Of a DNA stretch of 64,000 nucleotides, positions 36,580 through 62,344 are shown one piece after another. The notes beneath the pieces are model-generated. The model had not been told where the DNA came from, made no database searches, and saw only the letters and a program-made list of their open reading frames with translations. Source of the DNA: Raillietiella orientalis (lineage: Eukaryota). A program made the position numbers and the translations under genes. The stretch is taken from NCBI GenBank assembly GCA_036172245.1, contig JAYWIR010000064.1:372001-436000 (forward strand), given 5' to 3'. Within the stretch, counting starts at the first letter, position 1. The number at the start of each line of letters is the position of its first letter.

Positions 36580-37380
36580 GCATTAGCATGCATCGCAGGT
36601 TTGTACGTGCGTCGTCGGTACGGAGGACACCACGTTGGCGGATAAGGACGCGCGAAGAGCCCACGTCCACCCCGTCTTAAACTCGAAACGGTGGAAGATG
36701 GAAGGAAATCGCCTCAGATCGTGAGATGCGAGATTCGGGTCCCGGGAATCTGGGTCCCGTTCTCCCAGCCGGTTGTGCAACGGCCGTCTCCCTCTCGCGT
36801 CTTACCTGTGCGTCAGCGCGCAGACTCCTCCACCGCGGCGGGGTGTACGTTGCTATGACGTCGGCTTACTTCCCCATGGCTGCTGCGCCCTCGGCTGGCA
36901 ACCGACTTGGTGGTTTCCCGGGAGAGGGCGCGAAAAACTCTGGGTGTCCGAGGCGGCAGGTTCTCATAATGGGGGGTGGGGTGGGCGGGGGTGGACCGAA
37001 ACGGCGGCGGACACGCAGCACACTTCACTGCAAGCAAGCGCTATTCCGCGAGTCTGACGGCGGCGGTGGCACATTTCGAACGCGCTTCCGGCGCGCGAGC
37101 TCGCGTGTCACTGTGCCCGCACCTGTTCTCCATTTTACCTGTCCGAGTCTGCACGCCTGCACGCGCCCGTTCAACAAAGTCGAGTGCCACTCTCACGACT
37201 CGATGATTGGTCGATCTGCGTCCTGTGGAATGTGTAATCGGAGCTACGCGAACGCATTCACGATAGAGGAGAGAAAAGCCGTGTATGCATTGCATAGGCC
37301 GTGGAGAAAATTGCTCTTTAAAATGCATGTTGAAATGCATGTACGTCAACGTACGTGTACGACGCTCGCGTACATCACAC
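36580..37380 (-). promoter_or_regulatory. GC/CpG-rich island; probable ASPP promoter and first exon
   Basis: Sharp CpG-rich block 3 kb upstream of the first recognisable ASPP exon. Strong - strand donors CAG|GTAAGA (intron starts 36805) and AA|GTAAGC (36869). Kozak-context GCAGCCATGG at 36877. Confidence 0.5.
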
Positions 37381-37454
37381 ACATAACAGTTTCCTGAAAG
37401 CTCTACACAAGAAGAGCCTCTTATCCCATTTTTTTTTTCTTTTCTTTCTTTTTT

Positions 37455-37492
<38 letters not shown>

Positions 37493-40400
37493 TACGAACA
37501 TTCGAGAAGTTTCTTCTCGGATTCCTCACTGGTAATTCCGATGCTGCTGAGGTAATAGGGCTCTGCAGCAACATCGGAAGTAGGTTTCGAACATTCAAGA
37601 AGCTGCAGCAAGCAGCCTGCGCGGGATAACTGTAAAGTGCTGATGGTTTCGGAGGTGGCGAAATCTCTTGAAACAAAGATCAAGCGGCAGATTTTTTTTT
37701 TTTTTGTTGCTGTTGTTGTTGCTGTCGAATCTCTCGGTTCAAGAAAACAGCAATTTGGATGAAGCATTTCTTGAAGATCGACTTTGGCATCGATTGCCCT
37801 TCTGCTCTGCCGTGAGGAGGCACAGTGCGTGGGCGTGGATGCTTTTTTGCTCAAGAAAAACGCGATCCACACGTCCTCAGAGCTCATGAAATGCATCGGA
37901 TCGAATTCAGTGATAGAAATGAAAACTTAGGTTTCGGTTCACCATGATTCAGTCGGCAGTAGGGATGTTTTCCCATCCGAATCAATAAATCATTTGTAAA
38001 TCGAACGTCGTGCAATGACTTTTTTTATATCTACGACAAGATTTCAGTAACGGTTAGAAAATCGTAACATAAAGGCATTGAAATTAGCTTGGATTTACCA
38101 TAATCTTTGAACCGAGTCCTTCAGTATGGCTGCCATTACTTTTCCGAAACTCGGACTTCCCGGATATATTAACATGGGAAGACATGTGAAACTCGAAAGA
38201 AAAAAAAAAAACTTACACGTGTTTCGTCACGACTACTTATGTAAGTGAGATCATTTCAAGCTCACGCTTCTTTTTTCTTTTTTTTTACTTGTTCGTATTC
38301 TCGCATGTTCAAACTTATGGCTTACTATATCTCGAATCTGCTTCCAGACCTGTTCAACTGGGATGATTTTCTTTATTTTCCTATTCAATCCTCTGATTCC
38401 CCAGATTATTTACTTCCTCTGTTCCTTTACTCATTTGGTTTAACAAATCTTTAAGAATCTGCAATGAGCAGCATTCCATGATTTTGTCGCCATGATACCA
38501 CCAACGGTCTTCTTTTCACCGATATGGTGCTAATGGAAGATTTTGAACACTATTTTCTTTATTTTGGAATCAAGTAGTTGATTTCGTAGAATCAGAGATT
38601 CGATAGAGGCTTATTGCCATCACAATCGTCAACTCTCAATTTCAAATAGAAGTAGAAGCAGCAGTGCAGCAAAAGATGATGATCGTATTATATTAGCTAC
38701 TTATATGTCAGAGTACAAAAGAGGATTGGTTCCTCCAGCAGACGAAGCATGATTAAAATCAATCCTATTTAATATGGCAATCTTCACAGATAAATACTGT
38801 TAGTGAAAATTAATGTATCCACCGCTAATGGGTTTGAGGTCTGGTCTTAGTGTCTATACACACAATGGAATGACGACAAGTACGTCGGAGAGTCCCTTAG
38901 AATTTGCATGTAAGCTCGCAAATACAGGAACTATTCACAGAGTTCTACTGAATTCCTTGGCACTGCCGTTTTCGCTTCTGCTGGAGTCGTATTCTTATTG
39001 GTCAGTTTAAATTTCACATTACATAACGACTGGAAAACTTTTCAAACCGAAAACATTTCCAGACTGCTGAAAGCAAAGTCCGGAGGGAAAGCATCTTTCA
39101 TCTCATAATGCTGAACTAACCAAAAGGAATTGCCACAAAACGATTTTTAGCAAGATGTCAAGAACAGGGAGGCAGTCTGTGTCACCTGTGCCTACTCAAG
39201 TGGGGGTTGTCTGCCCCTTTTGTCCCGTGTACCACCAACTTGGTGCCCCAAATTCCACCTTTGTGTAAGCTGCAAGGTGAATCGAATTTCGTTTCACTTG
39301 CCAGTGTTTTGTCACCTTGTCCATTCCATTTGTTTGGCCATCTTCGTGGTTTTCTGGTTTAATGGACCATTTTTGCGGAAAGTAAAAACAAAGGTTTTTG
39401 CTTTATTTTTAAAAGGTTTTGCTTTACTTAATTTTGGAATGGCATGAAGTTGCCAAACGGTAGCGGTAACAGTAGTAATAATAGAGAATAGAAATAATAT
39501 CAGCGCCGACACTGTTTTCAGTGAAAAGTTAGAATAAACGTTGACGAGATCTTTCAGAGCTCTCACCATGGCATTTAAGGAAGTGCTTGTTTGATTGGCA
39601 TCGATATTTTTCCTCTTATTTAACAAAAGATTGGACTTGGCTGATTTCCTGGCCGTTCGATTCTTCGCCACGTTTTCAACAAACGGTCCAATTTTCAGAG
39701 TCAGGAGTTTGTAACTAATGGATTTTCCATAACGTTGCCAAATTATTAATCTGAATTATTAATCTACCCTGCAAACCTTGAAATCATTCAGGAAGACAAT
39801 TGAACAACATAGCAATGTTCGGCAGTAAGTGAAGATGTTAATCCGCATGAATGCAGATACATCATCTTGTTTGCCTATGGTCTTCGGCCATCCGACCATA
39901 TCTGTGAAGACTGTTTCGTCTTCATTCGGCAATCACCATATGCTGCATCGTTTTGATCCGAGACCTGCAAACTCCACACTTTCGGATTCTGGAGAGCTTC
40001 GACAAGCATCTTCAGGGTTGGGAAGCTGCTGCGTTTCTTGCAGTGTGGAAGGCGTGTACAAATTTTCTTCCCCTTCGAAGTTTGCTTCGAAGTTTTCTGT
40101 TTTCAGTTTCTGTTTCGTTCTGAGCTTTCACGTCTTCCACGGGAAGTGCAGATGGTTGTCACCTCACATACTCACAAGAAGAGCTTGAGATTGATGAACA
40201 CAGGTGCGCAAAAGACTGAGCTTTGCTTGAAATGGAAGCTCAAATTGCTTTGCAGCCCTCCTGAGATTCCAACGGTTACCAAAGTGAGGTCTTCTACCAT
40301 CGCATTCTCTCCGGGACTTCAGAAGCGAGATACCGCAGCCAAAGTAAGCTACTTTGGGGCAAAGTACGCACCGAGAACATGATCGAAAGTCCGATTCCCG

Positions 40401-43400
40401 TCTTCAAGAGAGAGTGCAGCCTGCTTTTCAAGGCCCGCGATGCCAAGAAGACTAAGAAACTTTGAATTTAGGTAAAAAAGAGAAGAACAAGCATACCTAA
40501 CGTTGTTAAAATGGAGTATCTGAAGCGCAACGCTGAGCTGGCAGCAGCAACGATAGCAGCAGCATTTTTTTTTCTTTTTTTTTCATTCTCCTTGTCTTTT
40601 TAAGGGAGGGAAGGGAAGGCAAAAGGGGAAGAAAAGAATAAGGACACTACCCATGCACTCTCAAACGGAAGTGGACGGCATGAAAGTCTTCAGCTACTAG
40701 GATCATTCTTAGGCCTTGGAAGTCCTCGGACTAATTGCCATAGGAAATGTGACCGAATTCCAAACGACTGCTCGAGTCCCGCGTAAGGAGATGCATGAGG
40801 TTGATGGAAATGAGCTCGTTGGACGCATTTGGAGAGAGTGCCTTGTTCGAACAAGTGGACATCCACCGAGATTCGGAAATTCCGAGTTTGAGGAAGGAAA
40901 GAACGCACTCTGCCACCTGCTCTCAGTAAACATCGGACTGATTCCATAGGGGGGTTTGGGATGCTCTCCGGGTTTCCACACGAGAAGGGGGCCGAATCGC
41001 CACAGGAGCGGGAGGTTGGGAGGTCGCTTTCGTAAAGAAATCGTTTACCGAGGTCACATCTTCAGTGCATCCTTCTTTTCTATTCATCTTCCTTCCTTTT
41101 CTGCCTCTTTGGGAGCCGAGATGCCACCTTGGATTAGATTCTCCATTGCACCATCATTCCTGAAAGGGGAAGTTTCATCAGCAGGAGAGACTTCATCTCC
41201 TCTGCCTCGTCCACAAAGGGTGCCATCTGAAAGTTTCCTCGGCTCCTGCGTCTCCTGCGGCACTTCGGGATGGCATCTCCACTCGCTTATTCCCTCTTTC
41301 TCTCGGTGGCTTTCCGTGCGCGAACCCGGAGCGAGACGGATTGCAATGTCCTTCGTTCGCCCCCTCATCATGTCCTTCCAGCGACTGAGCTCCTACTTTT
41401 TCAATCCAAGTCTTGAATTCGAACGGGAGAACTCATGAATTTTTCCCTCCTGAAGGCAAAGGGAGTCCTAAGACAGATGCGAATGGAACGAGAGTGGAAA
41501 TACTACTGTCCATCAGTATGTTCCAGGCACGCATTCCCCCTCGACGTTCCAGCTGCAAAGAGTGGGATACCCCTTTCCTAAGATTCTCTCTTAGCTCTTC
41601 GCTTCTAGAGGCAGCTGCTGAAGCGAGGCGTTCGCTTCCACTGCAAGGGGATGGCCCAGGTGGGGAAAACCTCGAGACGCAGTGATCCTCTTCAGATTCA
41701 AGGTGGTCCAGGGAGGATGTATGAGCGTGAGCCTGGGGAAGGGAATTGGTCTCCAGTGAGATCTAGGTCCCTTGTTCCCTTCACCCCACTCATCCCTCCC
41801 GCGTCCTTGGAGGGGCTCTTTGGCTCCTTGTTCGATCCCACACATATCTAACGAGGCAGTTCGTCCGAACGAACCTGATGTATTAAAAAAATCCTGCTAG
41901 TTTCGACCGGATCCCTTCCTCTCGGAACATCCCCTTCCCCTCCCCCCTCCGAATCCGAAATCCATCTTCACAAATTCGGTGAGCATGGGATTTCACAACC
42001 CTACTCCTTGGAGATGATTGGGGTTTTCAAACCATCTCCATTCCAACAGTAGAGCGCATATTGGACGTGACCGTCCAATATCGTCTTCCCCTTGGAAAGA
42101 AGGAAGGAAGGCAGGAAGTGCATCAGCAAAGTCCAAAGAAGAAGCAAAACGACCTTAGATTTCGTTGGTCCTTCTAAAGGCTTCCAGGCGACCTATTCCT
42201 TTCCCTTCCTCTCCTTCCCCTTGCTTTGCCCCCGTTCGGAACGAGTTTTGAAATAAGGGTGGAATTATCACCCAAGGATTCGCACGAACTGCTAAAAGCG
42301 ACTATGAATGGAAGAAGGGCAAGAATAGGGAAGGCCCTTTGTCTCGCTTCTTCTGTACTTTGACTTTGTCGCCTGCCTGCTTCAACCTGCTTTTATTCGA
42401 TTTCCATCCCAGTCTAAGAAGTACCTTGAAACTGGATTCGATCGTCTAGCTGCTTCCAGCTGGAAGTTCCATCTCCAGAAAGCCTCACTTCTCGCATTTT
42501 CAGAGGTTAATGACGTTTTTACAGACAAGCAGTGAAAAATAGGAGTCCTCCTCTTCCATACGTCCTTCCACATCGTCTTCTCTCACATACCAAATGTATC
42601 TGCAGTGTCAGGTCACCATCGTTCGCACCTCCCTCTCCTATCCATCTCCTCTTACCCTTCCTTCCCCTCCTCCTTCCCTTACCCGGGGACGACTTTCAAA
42701 ATACCGAGTAGAAGGGGCATGAAATAAAAGGAGGGAAACAGAGACTGGAAACCGAGCGAAAAGTGAATTGTTCCTTGAAACCAAAAACGATTGAGGGTCG
42801 GTCCTTAGTGAAGCACTCAGATAATCACAATTGAGGGTGCCAAAACGCCTCATCCCAGGATAAGAGACATCAGACCTGGGCAAAGTTCAAATTTTCGAGA
42901 CAATCCTGAGCAAAATGAATAACTAACGACATCGAAAGGGAACCAGTCAGAGGGCGGAAAATGCAGGAGAGGCACTTGCATGCTTGGTCCGAAGTTATCC
43001 CGTTGAGGGCATGCTTCTCTCTCATGTGGGAGAGGAAGATAAAGAAACGGTGGGGGAAAACAGTCTGCCGCAATAAAAGAGGGTGAGTCGAAGTACTGGG
43101 AAAACACAGGTGCGAAATGGCAACTGTCAGTGAGATCTCTCCACTCGTTACCATAGGAGAGAATAGATGGAGATGAGGAATAAAGAAAAGGATACAAGCA
43201 AGCTCCTAGTCTACTTTCAACCCTTCGCTCATCCGTATGATATTAACAGTGGCTTGGAGATAGAGGTGTTTCTGGCCTCCTGCTACCTCTATTGCTCGGC
43301 AGTGCAGGACTCGAAAAAACGCAGGACGCACGTGAGAAAACTCGGTAGTCCACGGTGCCATGTGCCCTTTCAAGATTCCTGAGTCCCTCTCTCTAGCAGG

Positions 43401-44641
43401 CGCTCCAAGAAGCGATCGGGAGAGTCCAGTATCTGCTTGCCTTACCAAGATAGAACAACTTTATATTCATGGGAAACAGAGGAAGGAGGAACCATTTTCA
43501 GCTATAGACTGACGCTCTGTCTTTAAACCTTCTTCCGCTCGTCTGTAAGATTTCAATCCTTCCCTCTTTTTACATGGGCTTAGTCCCTTTGCCACCATTC
43601 CTGATACGTTTTTCTGCTATTGCCAAAGGATCCCGCCACTGCCGCCGCCATCCCCAAGGAAGACTCGCAATCAGCAGCCCAACCTGGTCACAGCACACCC
43701 GCGACGCCAGTCCGCAAAGGTCATACAGGCAGTGCTGGTGATCGGGCGTGCGTTTCTTCTTCCCCCTTCATCAGGAATAAAAAGGAAACAGCACGCGAAG
43801 CTGTGGGCTCTCTCTGGACGCTTCATGGATGAATTTCGGCGGGCTTACTGATTGGCCCAGAAGGCCGGACTTGCCTATTTTAGTGGAGTTATGTCCAACC
43901 GACATGGGCAACCCAACGAACTGGGGTCTTCTTGAACACCGACCAGAAAAAGCCTTACCGTTAGAGACCAGGATGCAGAGATTGTTTTTTCCGATGGAGA
44001 GAAAAAACCTTGTACTCTAGCCTCCCAATTGTTTCCATCCTTGTATTTCGTGAGACGCAGTTTTTGGATGTACTCAGGTATTCAAGTGTACGACGAAAGA
44101 GCCTGCGGATAAAAACACTTCCTAGTGCAACGAAGCTTGCTGGGATCTTCTCGAAAGATGCCCCATCGGTGGAGCAATCACTGCTGCACAGAAGTTAGGT
44201 GAGCTATAAAGAGACCCAATAGAGTTCCAGCACCATGCACACTTCCACCCTGTAAGTTTAATTAGAGAATTTAATACTAATCCCAAGGGTGTAAAATAGA
44301 TGATCTTTACTTAACTACCTACAAACTTCGACAGTCGTAAAAAAAAAGATTCCCGAGATTCCTTCGTGGATTGCATCATAGATCCCTTATTTTGTATGGG
44401 ATCTTGTGCATCTTCTGCAAAAAATATTGAAAAGATGAACAGAAAATGAAAATGTGAAACAACTGATAGAAAGAACCAGATGGAGTGCTAAGAATGAGAA
44501 GACTTGGGATTCCCACAATTACGAAAAATATCATAACGTATACGAATTGGGCCGTAGGCAACTGACTAACGAAAGCTGTCTAGTAATAAGTAATAAGGAA
44601 CAGGGTAATATATCACTTTTATTAAAACTCTCATTTCGCAC

Positions 44642-47600
44642 TCACGCAACATATATGAAAGTGTTAATATCTTTCTCATCTCGTCTCATGTAGTTTTTTT
44701 CGATTAGCCACTCAATTTGTTCTTTTATCATTTTTCTATTAGGAAGAAACATATTTTTCAGCATATCCACTAATTCTGAATGCAGCTGAGAGTGTGTAAC
44801 ACGCTTCCTCATTTTCATGATTTTCCATATGGCTTCCTATTAATTAAGCATCATATGCACAAACCAAATGAAATTTGCGAGAAATACCTGAGTGCGAAAA
44901 ATGCGCAACTGTAAAACGCTTTCTACATCTTCCTTATGACTTTTTTCGGTCAGTAACTGAAGTCGACCAACCAAACTCAGTTTACCTCGTCTCTGTCCCT
45001 TGCCATTCTTCCTAATTAATTAATTAACAAGTAAACAACTAAATATATTTCTCTTACATTAGAACAAATTCCTGATTAATCCAAAAAAGAGTATTATCTT
45101 GGAAATCTTTGAGAGAAGGCACCTTAGGTTCATAAAGTAAGACTTGCATCTTCAGTTTGGGGCATGCCACTAAAGACTGATTGGGATACATATATTATAT
45201 TATTAACTAACTTATCCTAACCCAAAGAGTTTTTCTGAGCTCAGGATCCGGTAATTCTGTTGCCAGTTTCAAGCTTTCATAAGAAATTCTATCTAAGTGA
45301 CGTTGATTCCATGCAAACAAAACAGCCATTTGAAAGGTAGTCACATCCATATCATATCTTCCAACAGCATTCACAAAAGATATCTGAGAGACACATTCTC
45401 TCTCTCAAAAACACATATCACTTGTAGCACATATCCATACAGTTCCATAAGACATATGATGATGCCATTGCAACTTTCTTCCACTATGTTTAAATCTATA
45501 GAATTCTTCAACCTCAGGTATGTAATCTTCCAGTTCAATTGGTAGCGTTACTTGCACCCGCTCACTGGGTCTGGACCATGCACCAGCATGTAAGATCTTA
45601 ATATTAATGTCTGAAGAAAAAATGCAGCAAATGTTACAGGTTAACACCAGCATACCAGCAGCTCCTTCTTTGCTGTTATACTCTTCTTTAAACTGTCTGT
45701 TGAGATCATCACTGACTTTTATATCCTGAAACATGCGGGCTAATTTATTTACATATTCAGCAGGCATGCCGATGTCTCGAAGCCTAGAAATACAATTAAA
45801 TACGCTTTCAATGATTTTCACAAACCATTCCACCATGAGTTCTTCCTTTTCATAATCTGCTGAAGTATCTAATATTAAACGACGAGTCAAATGGGCTTTA
45901 TGGAATTTCATGAAGACATCTTTGTTCTGCACATATTTGAGTACAAGTAACTAAAATAGCATTAGAATTCTCATAAGTGTCCTTCAGATGCCTCTTAGTA
46001 CTTCAAGTCAATGTAATTGCAAGCCATAAAAAACAATATAAATGCGATCTTTGCATTAATGGCTCTAATTAATTTAAGTTTTACATTCTTAAAGTGAATA
46101 CATAATATATTTATTACTTTTGTGCATTGTGTCATATGTAATGCACAAAATTTGACAAATCAGACAGACAATCCACTTTTCACTATTCCTTGATTCCAAT
46201 GTTCCTCGATCATCATTTACTTTCAGTATTAATCACTATTTAATACAGTTTAAAATAGTACAGTGATTTAAGCTAATGACTCTAGTTCACTTAAAAATAA
46301 TCCAATGTTGCCTTTCTATCTTCCCATACTTATAATTATTTCTTTTTCATTTTATGAACAGGTTAGATTGTAACATTCTTTCTATTTTTGCAGTCATCTC
46401 TCTTCCATGAGAGATCATGGAACTAGACAGATCGCATTTTTTAAGAACATTAAAAACTAAAACTGCAATTACTGCACAAACTCAGCTCTACTTTCTGATT
46501 ATTGCAAATCCCAATTTTGACAAATTAGCAATAAGAAATGTTTTCCAAAACACCATTACTACAATGATACCATCTCGTGAAGTTAGTAATTTCATAGTAC
46601 AATGATGTTATTATTTTTAATCACATTCTTTTCTTTTTGTGTGCTTAATGATAATTACGTGAAATGAAAAGAAATATAGTAATGATGAAATGCAAATAAA
46701 TTAAACATCTAACAGAAATTTTTAAAATGGTTTTACCACATCCTTTAATTTCTTTTCGATGTCTTCGGAAGTCATTTTTTTGCTATACAATGTTTTTCTC
46801 AAAAGAAGATCACAGTAAATGGCCAATAATTCTGGGCATTTTGATTCAGGTACTGAATGCATTTTTGAAACAAATCCCTTTTTACCTCTTAGAAATCTAA
46901 TCAGTGCACTCTTGTTAGTCTTACCTGTTTAGCAGGTAATTCCAATTTAAAAACGGTGGTATCATTGACTACTTTCTTGTATGCTTTGTCACGTGCTGTT
47001 AGAAAGCGAGGATCATCATTGAAAGCCTCACGAACCAACCGACTACTTGAGCTAAATAAATCCAATAGTTGCTCAACGTATTTTTCAGAATCCTAGGCAA
47101 TCAAAATCAATAGGACCCCATTTAATTTCAGCATTACTTGAGTGATAATTTCGGCTGAAGCTAACATATCAGATAGCCCTTTATTAATAATGCACTGCTC
47201 TAAATCATGAAGCATTGGTGCAATACTATCTGCAACACGGTCCATCAACTTAAACATAAGTTTCAATTCTGAAAATGGAAACTTGCCTATAATTCTTGTA
47301 CCAAATACTCTCTATAAATTAAGTATTAATTAGTACTCTAGAAATTAATCTGTTGATAACTGATGCAAAACTGAAGTGATATGATAAATTTCTGGAGTAA
47401 TGAGAATATGTAGAAAAACTTTAGCACAAAATTTTAATAGGCATTACAGTATGAACTTTACACATCATATCATTACTCTGTGACCATATAAAACCATTAT
47501 TAAGATAGTCGTGAGCTCTCATTGTTTAGTACAAAACAAACTCATTTTAATTACTTTCTGTTTCATTTTTTTGAATCAAACTGCTGCAGTCTGCAAGAAT

Positions 47601-49559
47601 CGTATCTTTGAAAGCTGTCACCAGCACATCCACACAACAGTTGATGAGCTGAAACAAAGAAGTTCTTATGAACACAATGCATATTAACATAATATGAAGT
47701 TGGAAGTTGCATTGCTAACAGCACTTTTTTCAAATATGGAAAGTTCAAAATAAGCATTTCAAAGAAGCACTAGTTTACAAGAAATACAACTAAGTTAACT
47801 ATCATCAAAATCCTGTCAGAATAATTAGAAAACAAAAAAACTGTAATCTGAGAACATTTCACACAAAATCGATATATCCAACTGCTAATAAGATGGTTTG
47901 AAAAATCATTACATTCAAAAGTAAAATTAAAATTAAATACATACAAATATTCATGATCATTCATATGAATATATACCATAAAAGTTTTGATGATCACAGA
48001 AATTACAAGAATTTTCCACAATGAAAACCCCAGTTTTGTTGGGAGTTTCCCTTTAGCAAACACTTGTGCAGGACTAGAACTTAAACTATTCTCAAGCACC
48101 AAATTACATACTGCATTAACTAATAAGAAAGTTTTGAAACTTAATAGAATACAATTTTTAATTGTGTTTTTGGACAGAAGAAAGAAAGAGTGTGAAATGC
48201 CAGCATTAAAACCTAATCTAAACCTCTGGATGAACAATTATACTTTGATAAAAAATAAACGCCTTCTACAAATGGTTTTGCACCATTTGTAGAGAGTACA
48301 TTACAGAGTGGTACACAATGATACTGAGGGACTGAGTGAAGATATATTAAGCAAATTCTTCATATTGACAAATCACCGGATAGATCTAAATTTAAATAAA
48401 CAAATACATCATTTCTTTAGAAGAAATGATACATTATGATACATTACATCATTCATGGAGTCACTTGAAGTTTCCAAGTACCGCTGACCTCGCAATTCTT
48501 CTTCTCTTAGTTTCTGATCAGCAAATTTAAGATATTTTTCTACACCATGTTCTTTTAAATATAATGGAGCTTGAACCTGATAAAATGATCTAGTAGCTTC
48601 AATATATGCTTCTTCAAAATTCTCACGATAAATTTGCAACCGATCAGCAGTGTTAGAACATAAATTCACTAAAATTACGATTAATAATTTTCTGATGATC
48701 TATCCACTCAATAGCTATTATACATTAAATATAACTGTTTATCACTAATTATGCAAAAAAGTAACATTTAATACCATATGATTCCCTTACTCCAATAACC
48801 AATTGTGAATCAAAGGCTTGACCATTACGCTCAGCATGAACTAATTTCATTGCACAGTCCTGCAAACGTTGCTTTATATTTGAAAAAATAGTTTGATTCC
48901 AGGTGTCCAGCATTAACTTGGAAAAACTGTTTGATAATTTATCAAAATATGCATTAAATTACCTTTCGAACTAGATTTTCCTCATTCTGACTTTTTTTTT
49001 GAACGGAACTATTAGATTTTCCAGCAAGCAAATTTTCCAGCATGCTAAATGGTAAAGGCAAATAACGACACTGAGTGAAAAATTTGGTCCACTCCAAAAT
49101 ATATGTTTTCAACAGTGCCTGATCTTCTTTGTTAGCCAACACTCTCTAATATCATTTAAGACAAAAAATACATTAAAGATCACGCAAGTGCATTGAATCC
49201 AAAATTATTGTGTGAAAGCAAGTTTTTCACTTACTATTTGAACTTGCTTTATGAAATCAAGAATATCTTCTTGCAACTTTTGATAAACCTTTGGTGAACT
49301 TTTATCATCCCAAATGCAAACATTGTGTACAACCCAAAACAGATTTTGCCACTCGGATCTTGATACAGAATGTTGATGCAATAATTTAAGTATTGTAGGT
49401 CTCATTAAGGGCCATTGTTCCTCAAAGAGTTGTGGATTTTTTTCCTATTTGAAAGAGTGCACTTTTACAGCATCTTATCAAGAACAATTATCTTTCAACA
49501 TTATTGAAATAGTTGAAGCAAAGATTATGCGATTTTACCCTTGAAAGTGCAGCTGACAT
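44642..49559 (-). CDS. CUL5: Cullin-5
   Basis: 16 exons: 49539-49559, 49235-49444, 48963-49145, 48775-48916, 48448-48668, 47555-47648, 47138-47268, 46925-47092, 46737-46877, 45826-45950, 45656-45783, 45441-45610, 45222-45383, 45058-45176, 44888-45011, 44642-44836 (TGA). Diagnostic CUL5 peptides: MRPTILKLL, LMLDTWNQTIFSNIKQRLQD, DDPRFLTARDKAYK, PESKCPELLA, QNKDVFMKFHKAHLTRRLIL, C-terminal TFIYVA. Confidence 0.97.
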
Positions 49560-50773
49560 GTCCTAACATTATACAGTGTCTGTTGTGTAGAATATGAATA
49601 ACCTTTTTGAACACTTATTGTAAGTTCATTAATCTACATTCCATCATTATTCAACTTTTTTACTTGTTAATTACATGCATTATCTAGAATTAAAAAAATA
49701 TCTCAAAGGAATTGTCACGGAACATCTCAAGATGTACACACATTGCTTCCAAAAAATTTGCTGTTGCATGTTGCAATACAAATACTTTGATAATACAATT
49801 TTACCTCCTTGCCAAATGCTTTTTTATACATACGTATCTGTAACGCAACGATAGCCAATTCAAGTAAACACTTTTTATTAGTTGCAAAAACTTCAAAATA
49901 TTTGTTCCATGTACAATCTTGGCCAATCTACCTGTTAAATACGCATCATTGCAATATTACAATTCATGTACTTAATTCAATACGCTAGCAAGGGAATTTT
50001 AGTTTTCATGCAATTGCCAGTAAATTGAGTTTTGTGAAGCTTAATCTTCACAGTTACGATACAGGATGAGACTTTTGGCCCTTATCTTAGAAAACCATCT
50101 GCTAAGGTTATACATGGGAAACTAAAATACAATGCTATATTTAGATGCAAATCAAATGCCCCTGTTTTAAAATATTTGCAAAGTTCAGCTAATTCTTTGG
50201 TCTAATGGAGGTAGACCAGTGAATGAAAATTTGAAACGGAGCTAAGAAATGTGAGGAGGGTATATCTTTGTTTCTCTTCTTTTCTGGAGAGAAGGATCTT
50301 ATTTGGTTTTAGAAAACAAACGGTTAACGAAAACGAAACCATTTCACTGCGAATACAAGTGAACACAGGACTTTGAGCTTTTGACTCCTGCAATAGAGCT
50401 AACTTGCCCATAACGCATACATTCGAGTCCAGAATCCGTACGGGAAAATGGACTGTACATCTAGGTAAGCGTACTGCATCCTCAAACGGCGCACCAAGCA
50501 AGATATACTTCGTGATTACTCTTGCATGTTAGTAGAGAAACAAATAAAATAGATACTTCACAATCCTATTCATAAGGGCAATCTCCGCCTTTAAGGGTTC
50601 ACATCTTCCATTAATCAACTTCAACCTTTATAACAGGGCTTTGCTGGAATGCGTAATATCGTGCGAAATGAGGCACACGTTTTCTTTTGTTGTCCATTGT
50701 GACCGAGTTTTCAAAGGAATTATGTATCATTAAGTTTATGGTATAGCATTGTGAGGAATAGAATATAAGTTAC

Positions 50774-50930
50774 AGTCTGCGCCACTCCCGATTTTCCTGG
50801 CAGCCGAGCATTCGACGGAAAGCGGACTACGAGAGAGCCCGAGACGAGCCCGCGCGACGTTGGTCACGTGATGCACACGACACGTTCGTGCGGGAAACAC
50901 ACCGACACTGCGTGCCAACACACCATCTGG
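50774..50930 (-). promoter_or_regulatory. CpG-rich promoter / non-coding first exon upstream of CUL5
   Basis: CpG-dense block with GTCACGTGA E-box (~50864-72), TTTCCCGC E2F-like site on the - strand (within 50888-99), CATCTGGCA motif and a possible donor GTAACT at 50773. Which gene it drives is not certain. Confidence 0.4.
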
Positions 50931-51940
50931 CAAAAGCTTACATTTCAAAGTACGAAATTTCCTTCTCATCATGTCAATGCACAAAAAAAAAAAAAAAACA
51001 GAAAAAAAAAAAAAGAAGACGTGCAATCCAATGCAGCAAAGGAAACTGCAGTTCCCCCCCCCCCAAACCAATGACGAGAATTACCCAGGTTTCAGGTTTA
51101 CCCGGGTGCATCTTCGTCTCATTTCCATCCCACTTCCCGCGGATTCCGTGTGAAAACGTTTGAAATTTCTTCGGTTCCAGGTATTCAGTCAATGAAATCT
51201 GGGCCTTCCCGAAGGAATGACAAGCGTAACGGCAAAATGTTTTCAAGAGAGACTTCACTTGCAGAAAAATTTAGATTATGCCTTGCTTTCCCTGTCAAAC
51301 CTTCCTTTTCCGGTACGAAATCACGAGAACTTGCGAATCGAATGCCCTCCTCTTCGAATTGCATGTCATTTACTTAATAAGTCAACGAATACACGTTTCA
51401 AAATCCCTAATTAAAGATGTCGATGAATGTCGGATTTTTTTTAAGGCTATGAGATCATTTGGCGGAGGGGGGGGGGAGTTTATCCGGAATTAACTGAGAG
51501 GAGCATCACAAAAAATGCCTTTCATGTGAAATCGAGGAAAACTGAAAGTTGTCTTCGAAAGAGGATGCGTTGAAGGATTTTTGTACTGTTTTATATAACA
51601 ACTAACTACTTCGTAAATAGTATTGCGAGACACATATAAAAATGCATGAAACGATATAAGTTTCCGCCTCGGAAGACAGCATTCAACGAATGATTCGTTG
51701 AATACTGTCTTGATGACACATGCTTAAGCACACTGAATCCATTAACCAAGATTCAGATCTCAGAAAGTGGAGCGCCATAGGGAAGTTTTGAGGAAAAATA
51801 TTTTCATCGCAAATATATCTTAACTGCATTAGGGAAGTCAGGTTTCCTGTCTGCGCATAACACTGGAGCGCATGAGATGTTTTCAGATGAAACAGAGAAA
51901 ATACGGTGAAAACATGTTTCCCGCACCTACTCTTGGAGTG

Positions 51941-52412
51941 TCCCAACCTACAGGCTGGCTGGGATCCGGGAGGGATAGGCGTTTAGCCTATCCCTCTCGG
52001 ATCTGAGTGCAAAAGAACTTCTGGTCGGGTTCTCCAACAACGGAAGGTTGACCAAAGTATCTATCGTGGAGGTATTCTGCTTTCTACGAGCGGCAATGGT
52101 CGCCGGATACGAACTTGAAAAGAAGAACTATCTTCAGGATCCCATACGGATATGCAAGCACTTAGTGCTCAAAGAGCGAAAATGGGCACACATGAGTGCT
52201 TGCGAAAAGCAAGAATTACACGAAGTCGCAAAAAGGATGTGTCAAGCCCGCAAACCGGTACCCCAACCCCACCCGCATGTCCCCTCCCTTCCTCCACGTT
52301 CGATCTAGGGCTACCATCCCCTGTTGCGGATATTGTATTCGAGAGAATCAATCTCTTCCAGAGATAGAAATGTAAGTTTATTATGAGTAATAAACGTCCC
52401 GGCGCAACCGGG
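51941..52412 (+). ncRNA. Candidate structured non-coding RNA of unknown family (~470 nt)
   Basis: Near-continuous series of stems, including an 18-bp hairpin (51963-52003), a three-way junction (52057-52110) and a 19-bp bulged hairpin (52153-52204). G-U wobbles occur on the + strand and the linkers are A-rich. Confidence 0.4.
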
Positions 52413-53460
52413 TAAGAAGAAGAGAAAACACGGCGAAGTATTATTTCACTGCCTCGTCAAGATGTTTGGAAACTAAACAAATTCTAGTAAAAACTTAATC
52501 TTGCTAAAAAAATAAAATAAAAAAAAAGGTACTTGTATGCGCGCGGCTTGTATATCGTGATTGTTTTGGTCTGAACTATCAAAAAACAAGAGGTCCTCAC
52601 AGAAACGATTAAAAAGTATGAACTTTTCTTTACACTATCCGAAGAGCATAAACAAGACCTTTATTTCAAAGACTGGAAAACATCGAACGTGTTTACAAAT
52701 TTCAATGGAATCTGAAGCATCATTTTCCTCTAAATACACATAAAATTAAGGAAAAAGATTTATGATTCTTCCAAAATTCTCCCTATCTACAACCGTTTGC
52801 AAACATTGCTACCTCGGTAGATATACCCGTAAGTAAACACAATGAAGGCTTCAATCCAATCATTTATAATAAAGGTAAATCTCTTCGAGTTGTTAGATGT
52901 GCCAGAATCATATCCATATGCCGTCAAAGACAAAAGAATTAACTTTAACCTTCCTTTCATCGTCAAAAATTAATGATCGCATTGAAATTTGAACACTGTA
53001 TGCAAGTCAGTGCCGTATTTATTCAAAAATAAATTACAACTGTTTATTCACTTGAGAAAATCATGAAATTCAACTCCACAGATACCCAACCTTTTTTGAA
53101 TTACTCACTGAAGATGTTAAAGTAAATAAATTATCTTAAGCAATTAAATCATCTACATACCCTAAGCTGTAAAGCAGTCCTCACAACCATGAATTTATTA
53201 AAACCATTTTAACATGAATATTATGTTACCAAAAGTATATTCGATAACTAACAAATTAATTATGCAAAACAAGCTATTGCATGAGCGATTAAATTACTTT
53301 TGGATTTGTATTCTATCTCCCATCGTAGCCAATCCACTTTGCAAATTATATTTCTAATTCACTAAATGCATACATTAAAAAGCATGAGATTCACATTTTA
53401 TCATCCTGTGTTGCTACAAAAATTGAATGTGTTTTCCTTATTTTCCTGCTGTTGTGGCAG

Positions 53461-53541
53461 AAAATATTTCATATGGTCTTCTATAGGACTTAATTTTTAT
53501 ATGAAAAATTAAGTCCCATAGAAGACTATGTGAAATATTTT
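53461..53541. repeat. 38-bp imperfect inverted repeat with 5-nt spacer
   Basis: 53461-53498 versus the reverse complement of 53504-53541: 35/38 identical, all three differences are transitions. Confidence 0.92.
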
Positions 53542-56504
53542 CATATAAAAAACAATCTGTTTCAATTTCAATCATTTCTGCAGCCTAGTAGTTTCTCGAT
53601 AGGAAATCGGAGCAAAACTTGAAGAACGCCCATAAACATTACGTAAATTTCAGTAGTTCGATTTGAGAAAATTAAAATGTGAATTCAAGAATCGTTTTCT
53701 GGATCTACCAAGCGTTAAAGAAGTTTAATTTCCAAGAGTCTACTGACTTAATTCCGAAATGTGCAACCAAAAAGAGTTTCGAAAACTAGTTTTACACAGG
53801 GTAAACGCACGCATTGAAAGCTTACTTTTAAGACAGGAGAAAAAAAAAAAGAAAAGAGGATCAAGAAGAGTTAGTACTCGGTGTGGAATGCATAGCAATA
53901 GTCTCTGCACGAGAAAGAATCTGGAATCCTAGAAGCAATCCATCTCAATAATCGAAAGCTATGGAGTCAAACTCAATGCAAGAGTGCCGATTGCAAAACT
54001 CTTCGGAGAAACTGCATAAGAAGTTTTCTCCCAGAGGACTATTTAGATTCAACATGCGAAGAAGTTATATTTAAGAACACGGAGAGATTGATAGCACAAA
54101 TATTCACATGAAGGAAGGTTTCAAAGACGCAGAGCTGGATTGCAGTTATTCCGAAGAGATGTGGCAGAAGATTCAGATCCGATTCAGTCATCATCAAAGT
54201 CATCTTCGTAAATGGGAGAGAGATTATACAAAAACTGTAGTCGTGTACGTGAGAGAAGATAGCAAAACGAAACTCATTCCAAGAAAGTGAAATAAGCAAA
54301 ACAAGGAGTCATAGATATGGTGAAAAGCATTTACCAAAACTCAATGAGCATCCATCTCTTGATTCAAATAAAACAATTTTTTAACACAATAATTTTGCCC
54401 TAATAACATGAACAAAATTCGGTTATTCTGATTTTATAATTAACTGATGACAAATGTAAACATATTAGCTCTACATTAAAAACCTAGTCAATTAAAACAA
54501 ATAGTTTGAATTTTTTTTTTCCACAGCAATTTTTAATTCATAAAATGTTCGGAGAAAACAAGCAAATGAGGTCGTTCTTTTGAGGAAGACTTGCTTATGG
54601 TTGAAAACATCTATATCTCTTTACGGTAATTTGGTGAAGGCAACCCGTTTACAATTATCTGCAGTAGGTAGATAGCAGATTAAATTAATCATCATCGTGG
54701 AATGATGAGCAGATAATACAACAATAAATTCTTCTCCAGTGAAACAGGATTTGCTCATATTTAGTAGTCGTACTGTTTATGGTCATAAGTGGTTCCAAAC
54801 CGCATATACTCCAGATTGGCAACACAGTATGAGTCGTTTTCCTTTTTTCCGTGGTTCAAAACACCTCGCTTGTACATGCAGGAAAAAACATAAGCCACTT
54901 TATGGTTTTTAATGATTTATGTCTCAATGAACTTCTGAAGCATAGGCTTACAAGTAGAAAACAGTTCTAAAGACGAGGAGCAAATCAGGTCACGAAGATT
55001 GTGGCTTGTTCGTCAGATTAAAGTAATGGAATATTTTCAAGAATAGAGTTGCTTCAAACACAATTCATGGAAAACATTGAAATATGTCGAAAGTTTAAGA
55101 GTTAACCTTCAGAAGCAATTTGATTAGAGCAAATCATCATTTAAGATGCTGAAATGATGCGAGAAATGATGCAAGAAATGATGTGAAGATATCGCATGCA
55201 CTAGTTTGAAAGAATCATAAAATGAAAGAAGTGTTTAAGAATCCCACTAAAAGAATAAATACACTTCAATTGTATAGCAGCAAGCTTTTCCATTAGTTAA
55301 TAATAACACAATTTCTTCTAAGTTGGTTTTTTTATATATCTAGGATTTCAATACATATATATTTTTTTAAATAAAAATATATTTTACAGCTAACGGTGTT
55401 CCATCTGATTTTAAATTTCTAAGTGATTATCATATCCCAGAGTCCTAATATTCGTGCATTCATTCTGAGAATTCGAAAAATGCCAAGTTTGAAGTTATAT
55501 CACAAGATTTTCACATAAAGTAACTGAATTCATATCATAATACCACTGTTTCCTTAATTTCCTGCCACTGATTTTGAAAATATATAGTTGTGAAGTAATA
55601 TGAAATTGTACTTAGGGAATATCATTTATGTATTCTAGGGAAGCGTTCATTATGTCTACTCAGATTGAATAAAGAAATGAAAACTCTGTCACATTTTGAA
55701 CACTTATATTCGTTATTTACCATTCCATTTTCCTAGACAAAAGATCTCGCGCTACATTCTGCACGAAGACGCTAAACGAGTCAAAACTTTCTTTACAAAG
55801 GTGACAGAAATATGGCTATTATGACATTCTAAATTGTACCGTCAATGGCAAACACGTGTCGATGAAGTACTCACTTTATTTAGACTCACAGCAGTTGCAC
55901 TGAGTCTATCTTTCAGCAACCAAAAACTACATAAATATTTCGCGGTTTCCGATTATGTGAATATATTTACAAAGTGACCTGTAAGAAAAACCAAAACTTA
56001 TCGCCACACTTTTAATCCTCAGTGCAAAAGTCTCATCAGCCTTGCTTCTGTTCTGCCATCAGAAGATTGTCAACACTAAGCACGATAAAAGGGTATGAGG
56101 AGCCTATGAAAAGTTCCTCCGTGTAATGCATTATTAAATTGTATACTTAAACAATAGAAACGAACAGTCTCCAAATAATCTTGGGACCTTTCATATACTT
56201 ATCAAGATTTTCCGTTAGTCAATAATTACAAAGTTTCCTCTAGATTGCTTTTTTTTGATGTGAGTGGGATCATAACATATATTTTCATGTTTTCGATCAT
56301 GAGTCAATTGTCATCGTATCATTTGTTTTGAAGTAATTCGTGCATTATTAATTTAATTGCTGTTGTTTACTTATGGGATTGTAATTATTTCGATGTTATG
56401 ATTTCAATTACTAGTGAGAATTACTATTTTGCATTATTATCCTAAATGGTTTGTTCATTTTTCCATTTAATGTTCCTAAACATGCTTGAAAATTTCTCAA
56501 CACG

Positions 56505-56604: not shown

Positions 56605-56709
56605 GTAAGAACTGCAGATTAGTTTAGTTAGTGGTTTCATTTATAATTTCTATTCAAAGCCCTTTGTGCTATTGAACTGTGAAATGTTCGTTTTTAGGTG
56701 AAGGTTTGG

Positions 56710-59308
56710 ATGGTAGAAATGAATGAATCGTATGAATCAAAGGGTAACTTTATTTCTACAAAATCTAACCACTCTTCTCATGGCAAAGAGTTTAACGAAA
56801 GCAAGCAGTTTACCAATACGAAGGATGAAGTAAATCATTTGAATTTCTTATGTAACGTGGTAAGAGCAAGCGTTTGTTTTATCACCTGTGTATTTTCTCA
56901 TTTACTGTGGTGTATGGAAAAGCTGTGTTACGCATAAGCATCGCATGTTTTCATAAGGCTGATTCTCAGTTACATCCCAATTGATATCATTGTTTTATTT
57001 GTGCAGATTGCTAAGAAACAAGTGGAGTTATTTGATGACCTTCCACTTTCCCACAGAACCAGGAAAGGTTTAAAAGATTGTGGATATGTAACTCTTACAA
57101 AAATTCAGAAGGAGGCCATTCCATTAGCACTCAGTGGTGTGGATATTTTGGGGGCAGCGAAAACTGGATCGGGGAAAACATTAGCCTTTCTTATACCAGT
57201 GAGTGTGGATTGGAAAGGAATTTTGATATTTTTAATGTAGATGTTAGAATTATTATTTCGTTCATCATGGACATATTTTGATGGAATAGGTGCATTGATT
57301 ATTACGCCAATTCGAGAACTGGCTTACCAGATATTTGAAGTGTTGAATAAAGTGGGAAAATATCATGATTTTTCAGTTGGATTGATAATAGGTCTGACTA
57401 GCAAGAATAGTGCCACAATTAAAATCGAGAAATTTTTAGGAGGGAAAGATTTAAAATTTGAAAGCAAGCGACTGGATCATTGTAATATTATAATTGGAAC
57501 TCCAGGAAGATTGTTGCAACATATGGATGAGAATCCCTTGTTTGATTGTCTTCATTTGCAAGTGATTATCTTGAAATTGTTTACATTCAGTTATTATTTT
57601 GTTAAAGATGCTTATTTTAGATGAAGCAGACAGAATATTAGATCTGGGATTTTCAAAAACAGTGAACAGTATCCTTGAAAATTTTCCTAAGCAAAGGCAG
57701 ACACTATTATTTTCTGCTACACAAACAAGGTAAACTTGCAAAAAGGAAAATGAAATATTCATGCAATTCATTCAGGAATGTGAGTGATTTAGCAAGACTT
57801 AGTCTTCATAACCCAGTCTTTGTATCAGTGCATGAGCATTCAATTCATAGTACACCCAAAAAGTTAAATCAAAGTTTTGTTTGCTGTCCTTTGAAATTAA
57901 AATTAGATTTTCTGTGGTCATTTCTTCGTGCTCATTTGCACCAGAAGATTCTTGTATTCATGAGCACCTGCAAACAAGTGAAATTTATATCAGAAGTATT
58001 CTGTCGTTTGAGGCCTGGGATCAGCATTCTGGCACTATATGGCACCTTGCATCAACTGCGCCGTATGGCTATTTATGATGAATTCTGCCGAAAGGAAAAT
58101 GTAGTATTGTTGGCCACAGATGTTGCAGCTAGAGGATTAGGTGAATTGTTTAATATTGAAAAACTACCCAGAAAACAATAATTTTGCATTGCAAAGACTT
58201 TCCACATGTGAAGTGGGTAATCCAATTTGATTGTCCTGAAGATGCTGCAACATATATTCACAGAGTAGGAAGAACAGCTAGGTACAAGGATGATGGTGAA
58301 GCAGTAATGTTACTTCAACCGTCAGAAGAGATTATTTTAACATATCTCGAGAAAGCACGCATCCCCATCCAGGAGATTTGGTTTGTTGTAATTGTATGTT
58401 TTCTTGCATTTTCTGTAGTGGTTTTCAGTGTTAACCCTAAGAAACTTTTGTCTGTGCAGAAGAGACTGCAAGGAATGTTGGCTAAGGATGCAGAGTTAAA
58501 GCAAACTGCTAATGCTGCTATTGTGCACTATGTTAAGGCAGTGTTTTGCATGCCAGATAAAAAGTTATTTAATGTGCAAGAACTTGATCTAGCAGGTTTA
58601 TCTCAGTCATTTGGACTTGTCATGCAACCTAGAATAAGATTCCTTAAAAAAAAGTTGCAACCTATTACCCAAAATGTATCTTCATTTGTGCATGAATTTG
58701 ATGACAGTGATGATGATGATACTTTATTTACCAAAAAAAGTGGTAATCCTGAAATCCAAAATATTCCAGAAGTTTCACTTGTTAAGAAGTCGCAAACAAA
58801 AGTGCTTACTAAAGCAGCTCTTGCAAAAAGGCTTTTAAAGAAACGCATTCATTCCAACAATCACATACTGTTTGGTGAAGAAGAAAAAGTGAGCTTTGAG
58901 GTGATTTAGTTTAATTTTTGTTATCTTTTGTCTCTAGTTGTATTCAGACATACATACCTTGCCTAGAGATGCAGCACTGGAAGAGCAGTCAGCTGATGGA
59001 CTAGATCTGACAACTGCACGCCAAGCTCTTCAACTTGAAGACAAGCATGACAAGAAACTGTTTCAAACTCGTATCAGAGATAAGCATAGGTAGGTACTCG
59101 AGATAAATTACAATAAGAGTGTAATCCATGCTTCCTTGCAAGGAGAGAAAGACTGAGAACTCGAGCCACTCAACAAATTAAGAGGGCAAAGCAGGACTGT
59201 GGAGTTCAGCTCAGCATAACAAATGATGAGTTGAGTGATACATTTGAAAAACCAAACTCCCAACTTCATGATGATGAAAAATTAGTACTGAAATTATTAA
59301 ATAGATAA
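56710..59308 (+). CDS. DDX10: DEAD-box RNA helicase DDX10/DBP4
   Basis: Exons 56710-56829, 57007-57198, 57241-57391, 57440-57561, 57608-57729, 57776-58140, 58197-58380, 58429-58888, 58938-59089, 59143-59308 (TAA). Motifs [97 protein letters not shown]. Confidence 0.95.
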
Positions 59309-59343: not shown

Positions 59344-61535
59344 TTAGGTCACTTTAGAATACAGTGGAAAATCAGCTAAGTATACTTTATGAAGGGCTTT
59401 AAAGGCTGGATATAATCCCTTATCACCGGTACGCTGATTTATGCCAGTTGCATAGCCATTCCAATGATTGCCAGCAATGTTAATAAGATCACCTGGCTGC
59501 AGTTCAATCTCACCCTTTTGCATGGGCTTGTGAGCAAAACGAGCAACATAATGGTGGACACTCTGTCCCCCATAATAATAAATGTCATCCAAAGATCTAA
59601 AAGCTTGGGAAGCATCTACATGGTGAGTTTGCATCAGTTCATATGCCAGTCGACAGACCTTGAAACAAACAAGCATGATAAATCAGTGTGTGCAAAATTA
59701 CCTGTGAAGAGAATGTGCACACTAGAAAATCACAGTGTGATAAAAAATAAATATCTTTTACAATGCCTTTCAAAGATTCCTCTCCGTAACGTGTGTCTAA
59801 CCTGGCTGTCTTGGCTGTTGTGGGTTCAGCAATTATTCTGTAATTTGTATATCTGAAATATGGATTTTTTCTTTTTCATTTTCATTGATTTCCCACTTTT
59901 GTCGAGCCTCCTCAATAACTTTTGGCTCATCAGAAGATAAATATATGGTACGTATGCTCTTATTTGTCTTCAAAAGTTTAATGTCAAAGTATTCTTCTAC
60001 ATGTTGCATGTATTCATCCAGAGGATGAAAATCAGCTTCTAGACCTACTTTATCAGTGCGCCTAACATGAACTCTACACAGCATTAATTACAATACTAGT
60101 TATGTTCTACTCACCCCACAATGGGTCGTGTAAAATTATATTCTTGAGCTAACTGATCAAGATATTCCTGAAATGTTGGTTGGAATCGCATCAAATAAGC
60201 AGCTAGTTGTCCCAACCACCAAACTATTGGCCTGCTATGCCAATTTGCCACTTTCTTCCCAATATCTGCTGGTACATGTTGTGGCAAGAAAGATGGAACA
60301 GGATTCAATAACTCAACTATAGGTAAAAATACCACTTTGGCTGAGTCACTTCCTAAAATTGACTTGCACATGCAGAAAATCACTTTTCAGCTAACCTGGC
60401 CAAGTCTGTGCCACTTCACCAGGATGCAATGCTTTGCAGGTATCACTGACTGGCAGGAAGATAGATTCCCATCCTTTGGAACTGTAATGCCAACCTTGTG
60501 CTTCAAGTATCAAAGTTCTTTGAGTACCATAAGCTACTAATAAACAATATAATAAATGATGAAACTGGCATCCAAATCCACAACCCTATTTTAATGAAAA
60601 TTTGTGCCCTTCCTTGGATTATCTACTTTTACATACTTTGTTTAAATGACAAACCAATTTTCTTGTTATGCTGCAATTTTTTGGATTCTGCAAGTATAGA
60701 AGTCGCCGTCTGATTAAACTGCTCAAGTTTTCTGCAGCAACCTTGTTCAAAAGTTCATTTTCATTTTCCTCATGCAAGGTATCCATGTCAGACTGAATAA
60801 CCCTCCAAAGGAATCATGGTCAAAAACTTGTATGGACTTATGACTATGATATAAGCTGGCATTCCTTAGCTTTGTCATTCATAAAATCTTTAATACATCT
60901 CACCTAATGTATTCAAATATTTTTTCATAACTTAAAGCTAGCTTTTGTTCAAATTCTTTTTCATGTTTTTCATCATGTATGTAGCTCGTGCCTGAGTTTT
61001 TGATATTGATGAATTCGGATTTAAGGAAATTCCCCAATTCTGCTATCTCCATCGTAATAACTTTTGAGAGCCAGTGACCATGTATATTAGGATGAACTGC
61101 TTGATCTGATGATGATAACTTTGATTTTGATTGAAAGTTTTATCTACCTTGACTAATATTCTTATGTATTTCATGATAATTATAAGATACCAGTTCCCTT
61201 GAGTTAGATATTCTAAAATGCCAAAGTAGTTCAATCATTTCATGTATTTACTGAAACTACCAATTTTTATAGCAAATTGAAAGAACATAACTATTTAAAT
61301 TCATTGAAATTAATGCTCTAAAAAAACTTACGGCGTGAGTTTTTTTAATAAGTGACTATTTCTTTCTTTCAGATCTTCTAAATTGCTTAATGCTTTCTCG
61401 AGTTTCTGTGACAATTCATCCTCTGATGAGCCGCTTATATTACTGAATGAAACAACAGATATCCAAATAAGTATAAGCCACAGCAATGCAACTGAAAACA
61501 CTATTTTCCAAAAGGGCATCAGTTTTTTGGGCATT
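59344..61535 (-). CDS. FUT8: Alpha-(1,6)-fucosyltransferase (core fucosyltransferase)
   Basis: Exons 61332-61535 (type II TM anchor), 61148-61212, 60904-61105, 60637-60802, 60396-60585, 60115-60352, 59897-60073, 59702-59852, 59344-59658 (TAA). Motifs LQNPKNC...[45 protein letters not shown] and the SH3 GNHWNGY. Confidence 0.96.
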
Positions 61536-62344
61536 GTCCACTTGGTTACTGTTTGCAAATGATATGACTTACAATAACTCTGAATACAATCTTAACGTTG
61601 AACCGGTCCTCAAGGCTACTGTATCCATGATAAAAAGATTTGGCTATATAAAACGTCCTAGATCAATCGAGCACATTGCCATTGTTTCATGGCAGTTTCC
61701 AAGGGCGCAATTTAAAAAACAAAACGTAGCAGAAGAGCAGATTTTAAAATCATGACATGTTACTCACTATTATCATTAATTTTGAGCACGGCTGCACACG
61801 ACAATTATATCCTGAATTCAAGAAGGAATACCAGTTTCTCAAGGCAAATGCCTGAAAAGCTTGCAGGTAGTAAGAAAACTAGGCAGAAACTCATAGAAAA
61901 CAGTTCTTTAACGTGATCAAAGACATCAGAAATGTAGTTTTAAGACAAAAAAGTAAACTTAATATTTTTCAATCAAGTTGTTCTTAAAGTTCATTTTATT
62001 TTTTTAAAAAGCAAGAGATAGCTTTAGCTCAGCTATCAATATCTGAAATTCGTACGAAATTTTTTTTGCTTGGCTTTCTGTATAATCAGTTTCAATCCCA
62101 AAGTAGTTTTATAATATAAAATTTTATAATACATATATTCTTTTTTCCCTGGATGGCTAACTGAGATTACTAAGGAATTTAGCAAAGCTTTAAAAAGCAT
62201 ATGTCCTTTATCTTATTGTAAAACTCAACTTTAATTTTTTATAGAATAACTAAAATAGATGGATGTCTATAAGAGCTGTCTAATGCAAATTAATTCATTT
62301 GCTTATTAAATACTTAATGTTTTTATTTAATACTCATAAAATCT

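Follow-up and report, generated by a model that had tools for sequence, protein, structure and literature searches.

The spacer between CUL5 and DDX10

The window, by which we mean the whole 64-kb stretch of DNA analysed here, carries a hairpin-dense island at 51941-52412. The original prediction, made from the letters of the sequence, had named CUL5 and DDX10 as the flanking genes, and protein comparison bears out both names. The exons of CUL5 fall within 45405-49444 on the minus strand, and the one at 49229-49441 is 60-75% identical, over the alignments, to arthropod cullin-5, for example to Centruroides- and Daphnia-named proteins. DDX10 lies on the plus strand. Hence the two genes are divergent and the island sits in the spacer between them.

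The only DDX10 relative found (P0001, 839 aa) aligns by tblastn from 56998 onward, and the start of this exon is placed at 57007 from the sequence. The exon upstream of it, 56698-56859, is well spliced, and its first residues are VKVW against VKIW in P0001. A lysine-rich candidate for the first coding exon has its ATG at 53759 and its donor at 53801 or 53873, and is plausible as exon 1 of DDX10. The tttcag at about 53649-54 is a possible acceptor 5′ of this probable ATG.

The island begins about 1 kb past a CpG-rich stretch at 50.8-51.0 kb, which probably holds the CUL5 promoter, and ends about 1.3 kb ahead of the likely DDX10 start. The observed/expected ratio of CpG is 0.84-1.28 over 50270-52860 and 0.24-0.59 in the CUL5 body. 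Gene-body methylation is known from invertebrates, and on this ground the pattern may be read as an unmethylated spacer adjoining a methylated gene body.

On the minus strand, 50975-50942 would encode MMRRKFRTLK before a GTAAGC donor and is a candidate first coding exon of CUL5. Its end recalls the start of the orthologues, which begin with MAAMLKDK or MLKDK. The candidate is doubtful as exon 1, being out of phase with exon 2, which runs from 49444 downward. Either the assembly could be in error here or the true first exon could lie elsewhere; a pattern search returned just one further candidate, at 49831.

Every stem that had been listed for the island is present where it was placed, including the 18-bp hairpin, which is made of 17 Watson-Crick pairs and one G-U pair. 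The positions and folding energies are collected in Table 1. Two further observations of the original prediction are also accurate: the plus strand is without TTTT across 51884-52563, and the donor-like GTAAGT and GTAAGA stand at 52372 and 52412, at the 3′ end of the island.

A canonical G-quadruplex motif, GGGAGGGGACATGCGGGTGGGG, occupies 52267-52288 on the minus strand, which is the sense strand of CUL5. The 64 kb holds only two others.

Table 1. Positions of the hairpins, the 3′ terminal elements and the putative insert boundaries
Feature	Position	Strand	Folding energy (kcal/mol) or basis
Upstream copy of putative target-site duplication, AGAGAAAATACGGTGAA	51894..51910	+	best ungapped match
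Putative retroposed insert, 510 nt, non-coding	51911..52420	+	bounded by direct repeat; GC rise
18-bp near-perfect hairpin, 5-nt loop	51963-80/51986-52003	+	-36.5 on +, -31.7 on -
Bulged hairpin	52017..52058	+	-13.9 on +, -11.8 on -
Small three-way junction closed by GTATCT/GGATAC	52057..52110	+	-18.7 on +, -10.3 on -; 5 G-U on +
Small stems	52122-35, 52351-65, 52376-95, 52398-412	+	presence confirmed
Long interrupted hairpin	52153..52204	+	-25.5 on +, -19.9 on -
C-rich stretch closed by CCGCAA/TTGCGG	52248..52329		-14.5 on +, -25.3 on -
Helix GTTTATTA/TAATAAAC embedding AATAAA(C)	52376..52395	+	fold
Terminal GC hairpin CCCGG-CGCAA-CCGGG	52398..52412	+	fold, pattern search
Short purine tail TAAGAAGA, part of AAGAAGAAG, gap between hairpin and repeat	52413..52420	+	read from sequence
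Downstream copy of putative target-site duplication, AGAGAAAACACGGCGAA	52421..52437	+	matches 51894-51910

Folding and strand preference of the island

The whole island folds to -167.1 kcal/mol on the plus strand (z = -5.27) and to -178.4 kcal/mol on the minus strand (z = -6.46), and none of 100 dinucleotide shuffles equals either energy. When energies are regressed on GC content, 4 of 270 same-length windows of the 64 kb are as good on the plus strand and one of 270 on the minus strand. Without the 18-bp palindrome, z drops to -2.89 on the plus strand (0/100 shuffles equal it) and to -2.54 on the minus strand (2/100). Thus about half of the folding signal comes from this single palindrome.

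A strong local hairpin was defined as a 54-nt window reaching -14 kcal/mol or lower on either strand. Such hairpins fill 6 of the 17 windows in the 510-nt insert of Table 1 against 156 of the 2352 outside (p = 6e-4), or against 103 of 703 when the outside windows are matched for GC (p = 0.03). The 5′ half of the insert contains all six. The hairpin richness of the island is beyond chance, but moderate. Comparison with shuffles, which had been proposed as a check, does confirm better folding on the plus strand; the effect is weaker than claimed and not strand-specific, with the minus strand folding even better.

About ten G-U pairs had been counted on the plus strand and taken for a strand signal. 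The count holds, as the plus strand forms 13, but the signal does not, as the minus strand forms 10. Within the 5′ half the numbers are 11 and 4, and all four large 5′ hairpins are more stable on the plus strand, whereas the C-rich 52248-52329 is far more stable on the minus strand. Among 155 other hairpin windows serving as control, there are 240 G-U pairs on the plus and 259 on the minus strand, and 74 windows are more stable on the plus and 80 on the minus strand.

That all four of these hairpins prefer the plus strand hints at a plus orientation and is no evidence of selection. With 13 against 10 G-U pairs and a whole island that is better folded on the minus strand, the plus-strand RNA signal of the original prediction is not established.

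Direct repeat, 3′ terminus and searches for relatives

A 17-nt direct repeat, AGAGAAAAYACGGYGAA, brackets the island, its two copies being identical at 15 of 17 positions with both differences transitions. It is the best ungapped match between the 30 nt after the 3′ hairpin and 1.4 kb upstream. The downstream copy starts 8 nt past the terminal GC hairpin, and 30 nt separate the end of the upstream copy from the island start, a start that was picked without knowledge of the repeat. Scores as high arise in 5 of 500 shuffled flanks, in 6 of 600 natural 30-mers matched to their own upstream 1.4 kb and in 4 of the 81 natural control flanks that are A-rich. We infer that the joint chance of this score and of the position at the island start is of the order of 1e-3.

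A target-site duplication was sought as a repeat of about 7-20 bp adjoining the 3′ tail. The repeat found is of this size and place, which is suggestive of a duplication flanking the island, and not proof of it. A duplication of 15-17 nt rich in A is a typical trace of target-primed reverse transcription by an L1-type endonuclease. With its 15-17 nt length and A-rich start, the repeat would fit the targets of such an endonuclease.

Between the two copies, GC content per 50 nt is about 50% against 30-44% in the flanks. An alternative 3′ end at the A-run 52506-52527 was rejected, as it is without a following direct repeat (best score 7).

The 3′ end of the insert runs in the order GTTTATTA-tgag-TAATAAAC, two bases, CCCGG-cgcaa-CCGGG and then TAAGAAGA. 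There is no poly(A) tail at this end, only the TAAGAAGA. The AATAAA lies 17 nt past the first donor (52372) and 18 nt ahead of the hairpin end. An AATAAAC followed closely by a GC hairpin is matched once in the 64 kb where 0.01 matches are expected. With an upstream TTTATT added, the pattern is unique in the window and appears in none of 100 composition-preserving shuffles.

Known structured RNAs gave no match. In a 3.5-kb search, the covariance models of Rfam 15, those of telomerase RNA included, show no match to the island up to an E of 1. They yield two hits at noise level (E of 2.4 and 3.5) over 571 nt, and have no match at the gathering level in the whole 64 kb. The failure of the original prediction to match snRNAs, RNase P/MRP, SRP, 7SK or ribozymes is thereby upheld. 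As to a tRNA-like head with A and B boxes, ARAGORN reports no gene in 51000-53000, and the Rfam tRNA, 5S and 7SL families are absent.

An open frame of 109 codons spans 51979-52308. Its only Pfam match is to DUF4031, at 17.3 bits against a cut-off of 25.6, and phmmer finds no hit for it among 1.84 billion representatives. In the ESM Atlas, its best score is 0.75 and its recognition 1734, the recognition threshold being 2300, a value reached by 91 of 100 known-family proteins. Frames as long turn up in 258 of 2000 shuffles, and 21 of 40 natural windows matched for GC also have one. Judged by these comparisons, the frame is not protein-like.

Reverse transcriptase and endonuclease were sought in three-frame read-throughs with stops written as X. 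No Pfam family, of these or any other kind, is found at E up to 1 on the plus strand of 50401-52412 or the minus strand of 51401-53202. The 33 long ORFs in the first 45 kb of the window are also without reverse transcriptase and show only host Cut8 and ankyrin exons. The lack of a remnant is expected if the insert is a 510-nt 5′-truncated copy or a SINE.

Neither blastn nor nhmmer finds a second copy of the island in the window. A metagenome scan with the 3′ module gives 18 loci, with a longest alignment of 39 nt at 77%; none aligns past the search pattern, and all are counted as chance matches. A viral scan with the 18-bp hairpin gives no locus.

Three other kinds of element were considered and rejected. 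Helitrons have a CTRR end and LTRs have TG..CA ends, and the insert shows neither, so that it is taken for neither a Helitron nor a solo LTR. None of the 20 inverted-repeat pairs listed joins the ends of 51911-52420, as the terminal inverted repeats of a DNA transposon or MITE would.

Interpretation and further features of the window

The 17-nt direct repeat and the terminus of AATAAAC helix and GC hairpin favour a retroposon. We tentatively read the island as the relic of one old retroposition, namely a 510-nt, non-coding, 5′-truncated and tail-less retroposon in plus orientation. Judged from the sequence, it would most likely be the 3′ end of a non-LTR retrotransposon of the stringent type, or else of a non-autonomous element with a borrowed tail of this kind. 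A retroelement UTR had been among the options of the original prediction; the repeat and the terminus favour this option, and the family itself is suggested by likeness.

The element RNA would have carried a hairpin-rich 3′ region, closing with the AAUAAAC helix, then the GC hairpin, then a few bases of AAG-type tail. The element's reverse transcriptase would have recognised this 3′ end and nicked an A-rich target. The RNA would then have been copied by target-primed reverse transcription, an early stop leaving the 5′ truncation, and repair would have duplicated about 15-17 nt of the target. The hairpins would accordingly be decaying leftovers and not a host function.

The insert GC above that of the flanks also counts for this retroposition, and so does the greater stability of the four 5′ hairpins on the strand that has the AATAAA. 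Counted against it are the lack of a second copy in the window, the lack of a reverse transcriptase or endonuclease remnant, the imperfect and A-rich repeat, whose score a few A-rich flanks also reach, and the strand data, which give no net plus-strand excess of G-U pairs and a whole island better folded on the minus strand. The CpG ratio near 1 counts against it as well, being promoter-like and so leaving room for a host regulatory role.

Conserved 3′ stem-loops, which PMC3747384 describes as the usual recognition handle of stringent-type LINEs and their SINEs, are a further point in favour. The same paper names the 3′ UTR of R2, an eel LINE/SINE pair and LINE1-1_ZM with ZmSINE2/3 as tails of this type, LINE1-1_ZM belonging to a monocot L1 lineage. 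A stringently recognised 3′ end is rare in the L1 clade, with three SINEs having L1 tails against more than 800 L1-clade LINEs (PMC3747384).

As far as they are described there, such tails resemble the island in a non-coding 3′ region, a stem-loop near the terminus and the lack of a real poly(A). The retroposons of this type resemble it in a short AAG simple-repeat-like tail, a putative target-site duplication and a presumed 5′ truncation. The island differs from full stringent-type LINEs in having no reverse transcriptase remnant, and it is likened to them by layout, not by alignment.

With processed pseudogenes and 5′-truncated L1 retrocopies, the island has in common a putative 15-17-nt A-rich duplication, an AATAAA near the 3′ end and an intronless body. 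It differs from processed pseudogenes in that it is without a poly(A) tail and without an identifiable parent gene or protein. With tRNA-derived SINEs, it shares the size class and a GC-rich, hairpin-rich body, but not the tRNA-like head.

The whole could also be neither functional nor an element, the palindromes having clustered by chance in a GC-richer spacer and an A-rich repeat happening to flank them. This is unlikely, yet has to be reckoned with, given a GC-matched hairpin excess of only p = 0.03, z values of only -2.9 and -2.5 once the 18-bp palindrome is removed, other windows of the 64 kb that fold equally well for their GC, and the 4 of 81 A-rich control flanks. Chance, however, has to place the repeat exactly at both edges and beside a terminal module that is unique in the window, and to give whole-island z values of -5.3 and -6.5. 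A host origin is distinctly unlikely. The DNA or transcript would then be promoter-associated, as the non-coding first exon of a lncRNA, an upstream exon used alternatively at the 5′ end of DDX10, or antisense RNA made upstream from the CUL5 promoter. In that case the hairpins would either be incidental or act in regulation as GC-rich palindromes. The CpG ratio of 50270-52860 is what an unmethylated promoter spacer would show, two of the four GTRAG donors on the plus strand in 50.5-54 kb are those at the 3′ end of the island, the G-quadruplex motif is on the CUL5-sense strand, and the possible acceptor precedes the likely DDX10 ATG. But the probable coding exons of DDX10 are at least 1.3 kb downstream (53759 onward, 56698-56859 and 57007 onward), and the AATAAA just past the first donor and the flanking repeat are left unexplained.

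Instead of stemming from a LINE or SINE, the island may be a cellular RNA copied by LINE machinery, be it the 3′ portion of an mRNA or a non-coding RNA with structure. Such a retrocopy explains the direct repeat and the plus orientation equally well, the 18 nt from the AATAAA to the hairpin end resemble the spacing of a poly(A) signal, and a 70-codon ORF has its ATG at 52097 in a context judged favourable, with GGCA before and G after. Against this stand the 3′ end, which has TAAGAAGA in place of poly(A), the ORF, which is without relatives in the 1.84 billion representatives, with the recognition of 1734 and a length found in 258 of 2000 shuffles, and the lack of a matching Rfam family; we hold a retrocopy to be highly improbable. 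Least probable of all is an undescribed structured non-coding RNA gene on the plus strand, which was the headline of the original prediction, with selection at the RNA level. It draws on folding that beats shuffles, on the four 5′ hairpins stabilised on the plus strand by G-U pairs (11 against 4 in that half) and on the plus strand free of TTTT. Yet the minus strand folds better overall and nearly matches the G-U count (10 against 13), no Rfam hit beyond noise comes up even at E up to 10, no homologue for covariation emerged from the window, metagenome and viral scans, and the flanking direct repeats point to an insertion. The headline thus finds no support in the Rfam searches, the scans for homologues or the strand counts.

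The weakest form of such a gene is a telomerase RNA, an option that had also been raised. A template was sought covering at least 1.5 repeats: the longest match to (TTAGG)n is the 6-nt AACCTA, with not one 7-mer in agreement. As a template, CCCCAACCCCA would specify a repeat of the TTGGGG (ciliate) type, which to our knowledge is not expected in arthropods. With this single 6-mer fit to a TTAGG-type template, the telomerase option is very weak.

The retroposition that we prefer would, if true, be an ordinary finding that adds another decayed retroposon tail between two genes. Its wider interest would lie in the structured, tail-less 3′ end of an L1/Tx1-like element. It also advises caution: before a GC island dense in hairpins is called a new RNA in an AT-rich animal genome, target-site duplications and copy number need checking. 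An undescribed family of tail-less non-autonomous retroposons, or a copy co-opted as a structured promoter-upstream RNA of CUL5/DDX10, is a bolder and very unlikely version. There, an RNA of about 0.5 kb would serve as a multi-hairpin scaffold whose plus strand was selected for recognition by an L1/Tx1-type reverse transcriptase.

Other palindromes lie in the same spacer. At 53460-53542, some 220 nt ahead of the probable ATG of DDX10, an inverted repeat is near-perfect: its 39-nt arms are 92% complementary around a 5-nt loop, and it folds to -47.4 kcal/mol on the plus strand. Rfam returns sub-threshold hits to plant and animal miRNAs on both strands of it, the best at 35.9 bits against a gathering threshold of 180, and a foldback or a palindrome of MITE-like kind is its probable nature. 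A second palindrome at 51673-51711 has 19-nt arms, 95% complementary, with a 1-nt spacer (-19.5 kcal/mol on the plus and -24.2 on the minus strand), and is located 200 nt upstream of the insert, outside the direct repeat. A third inverted repeat, 51054-51074/51455-51475, is tipped by C11 and G9, 380 nt apart and 76% complementary; it could mark the ends of a small spacer MITE.

Elsewhere in the window, two blocks are rich in GC (0.47-0.62), at 40000-44000 and 36580-37050. Both strands carry long open frames that overlap there, and several windows within the blocks fold unusually well for their GC. No significant Pfam match is found in these blocks, DUF6062 staying below its cut-off (22 bits against 27) at 37041-37487 on the minus strand. 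Downstream of DDX10, 59344-61591 on the minus strand holds exons with an SH3-like end, which we take to resemble an alpha-1,6-fucosyltransferase of the FUT8 type.
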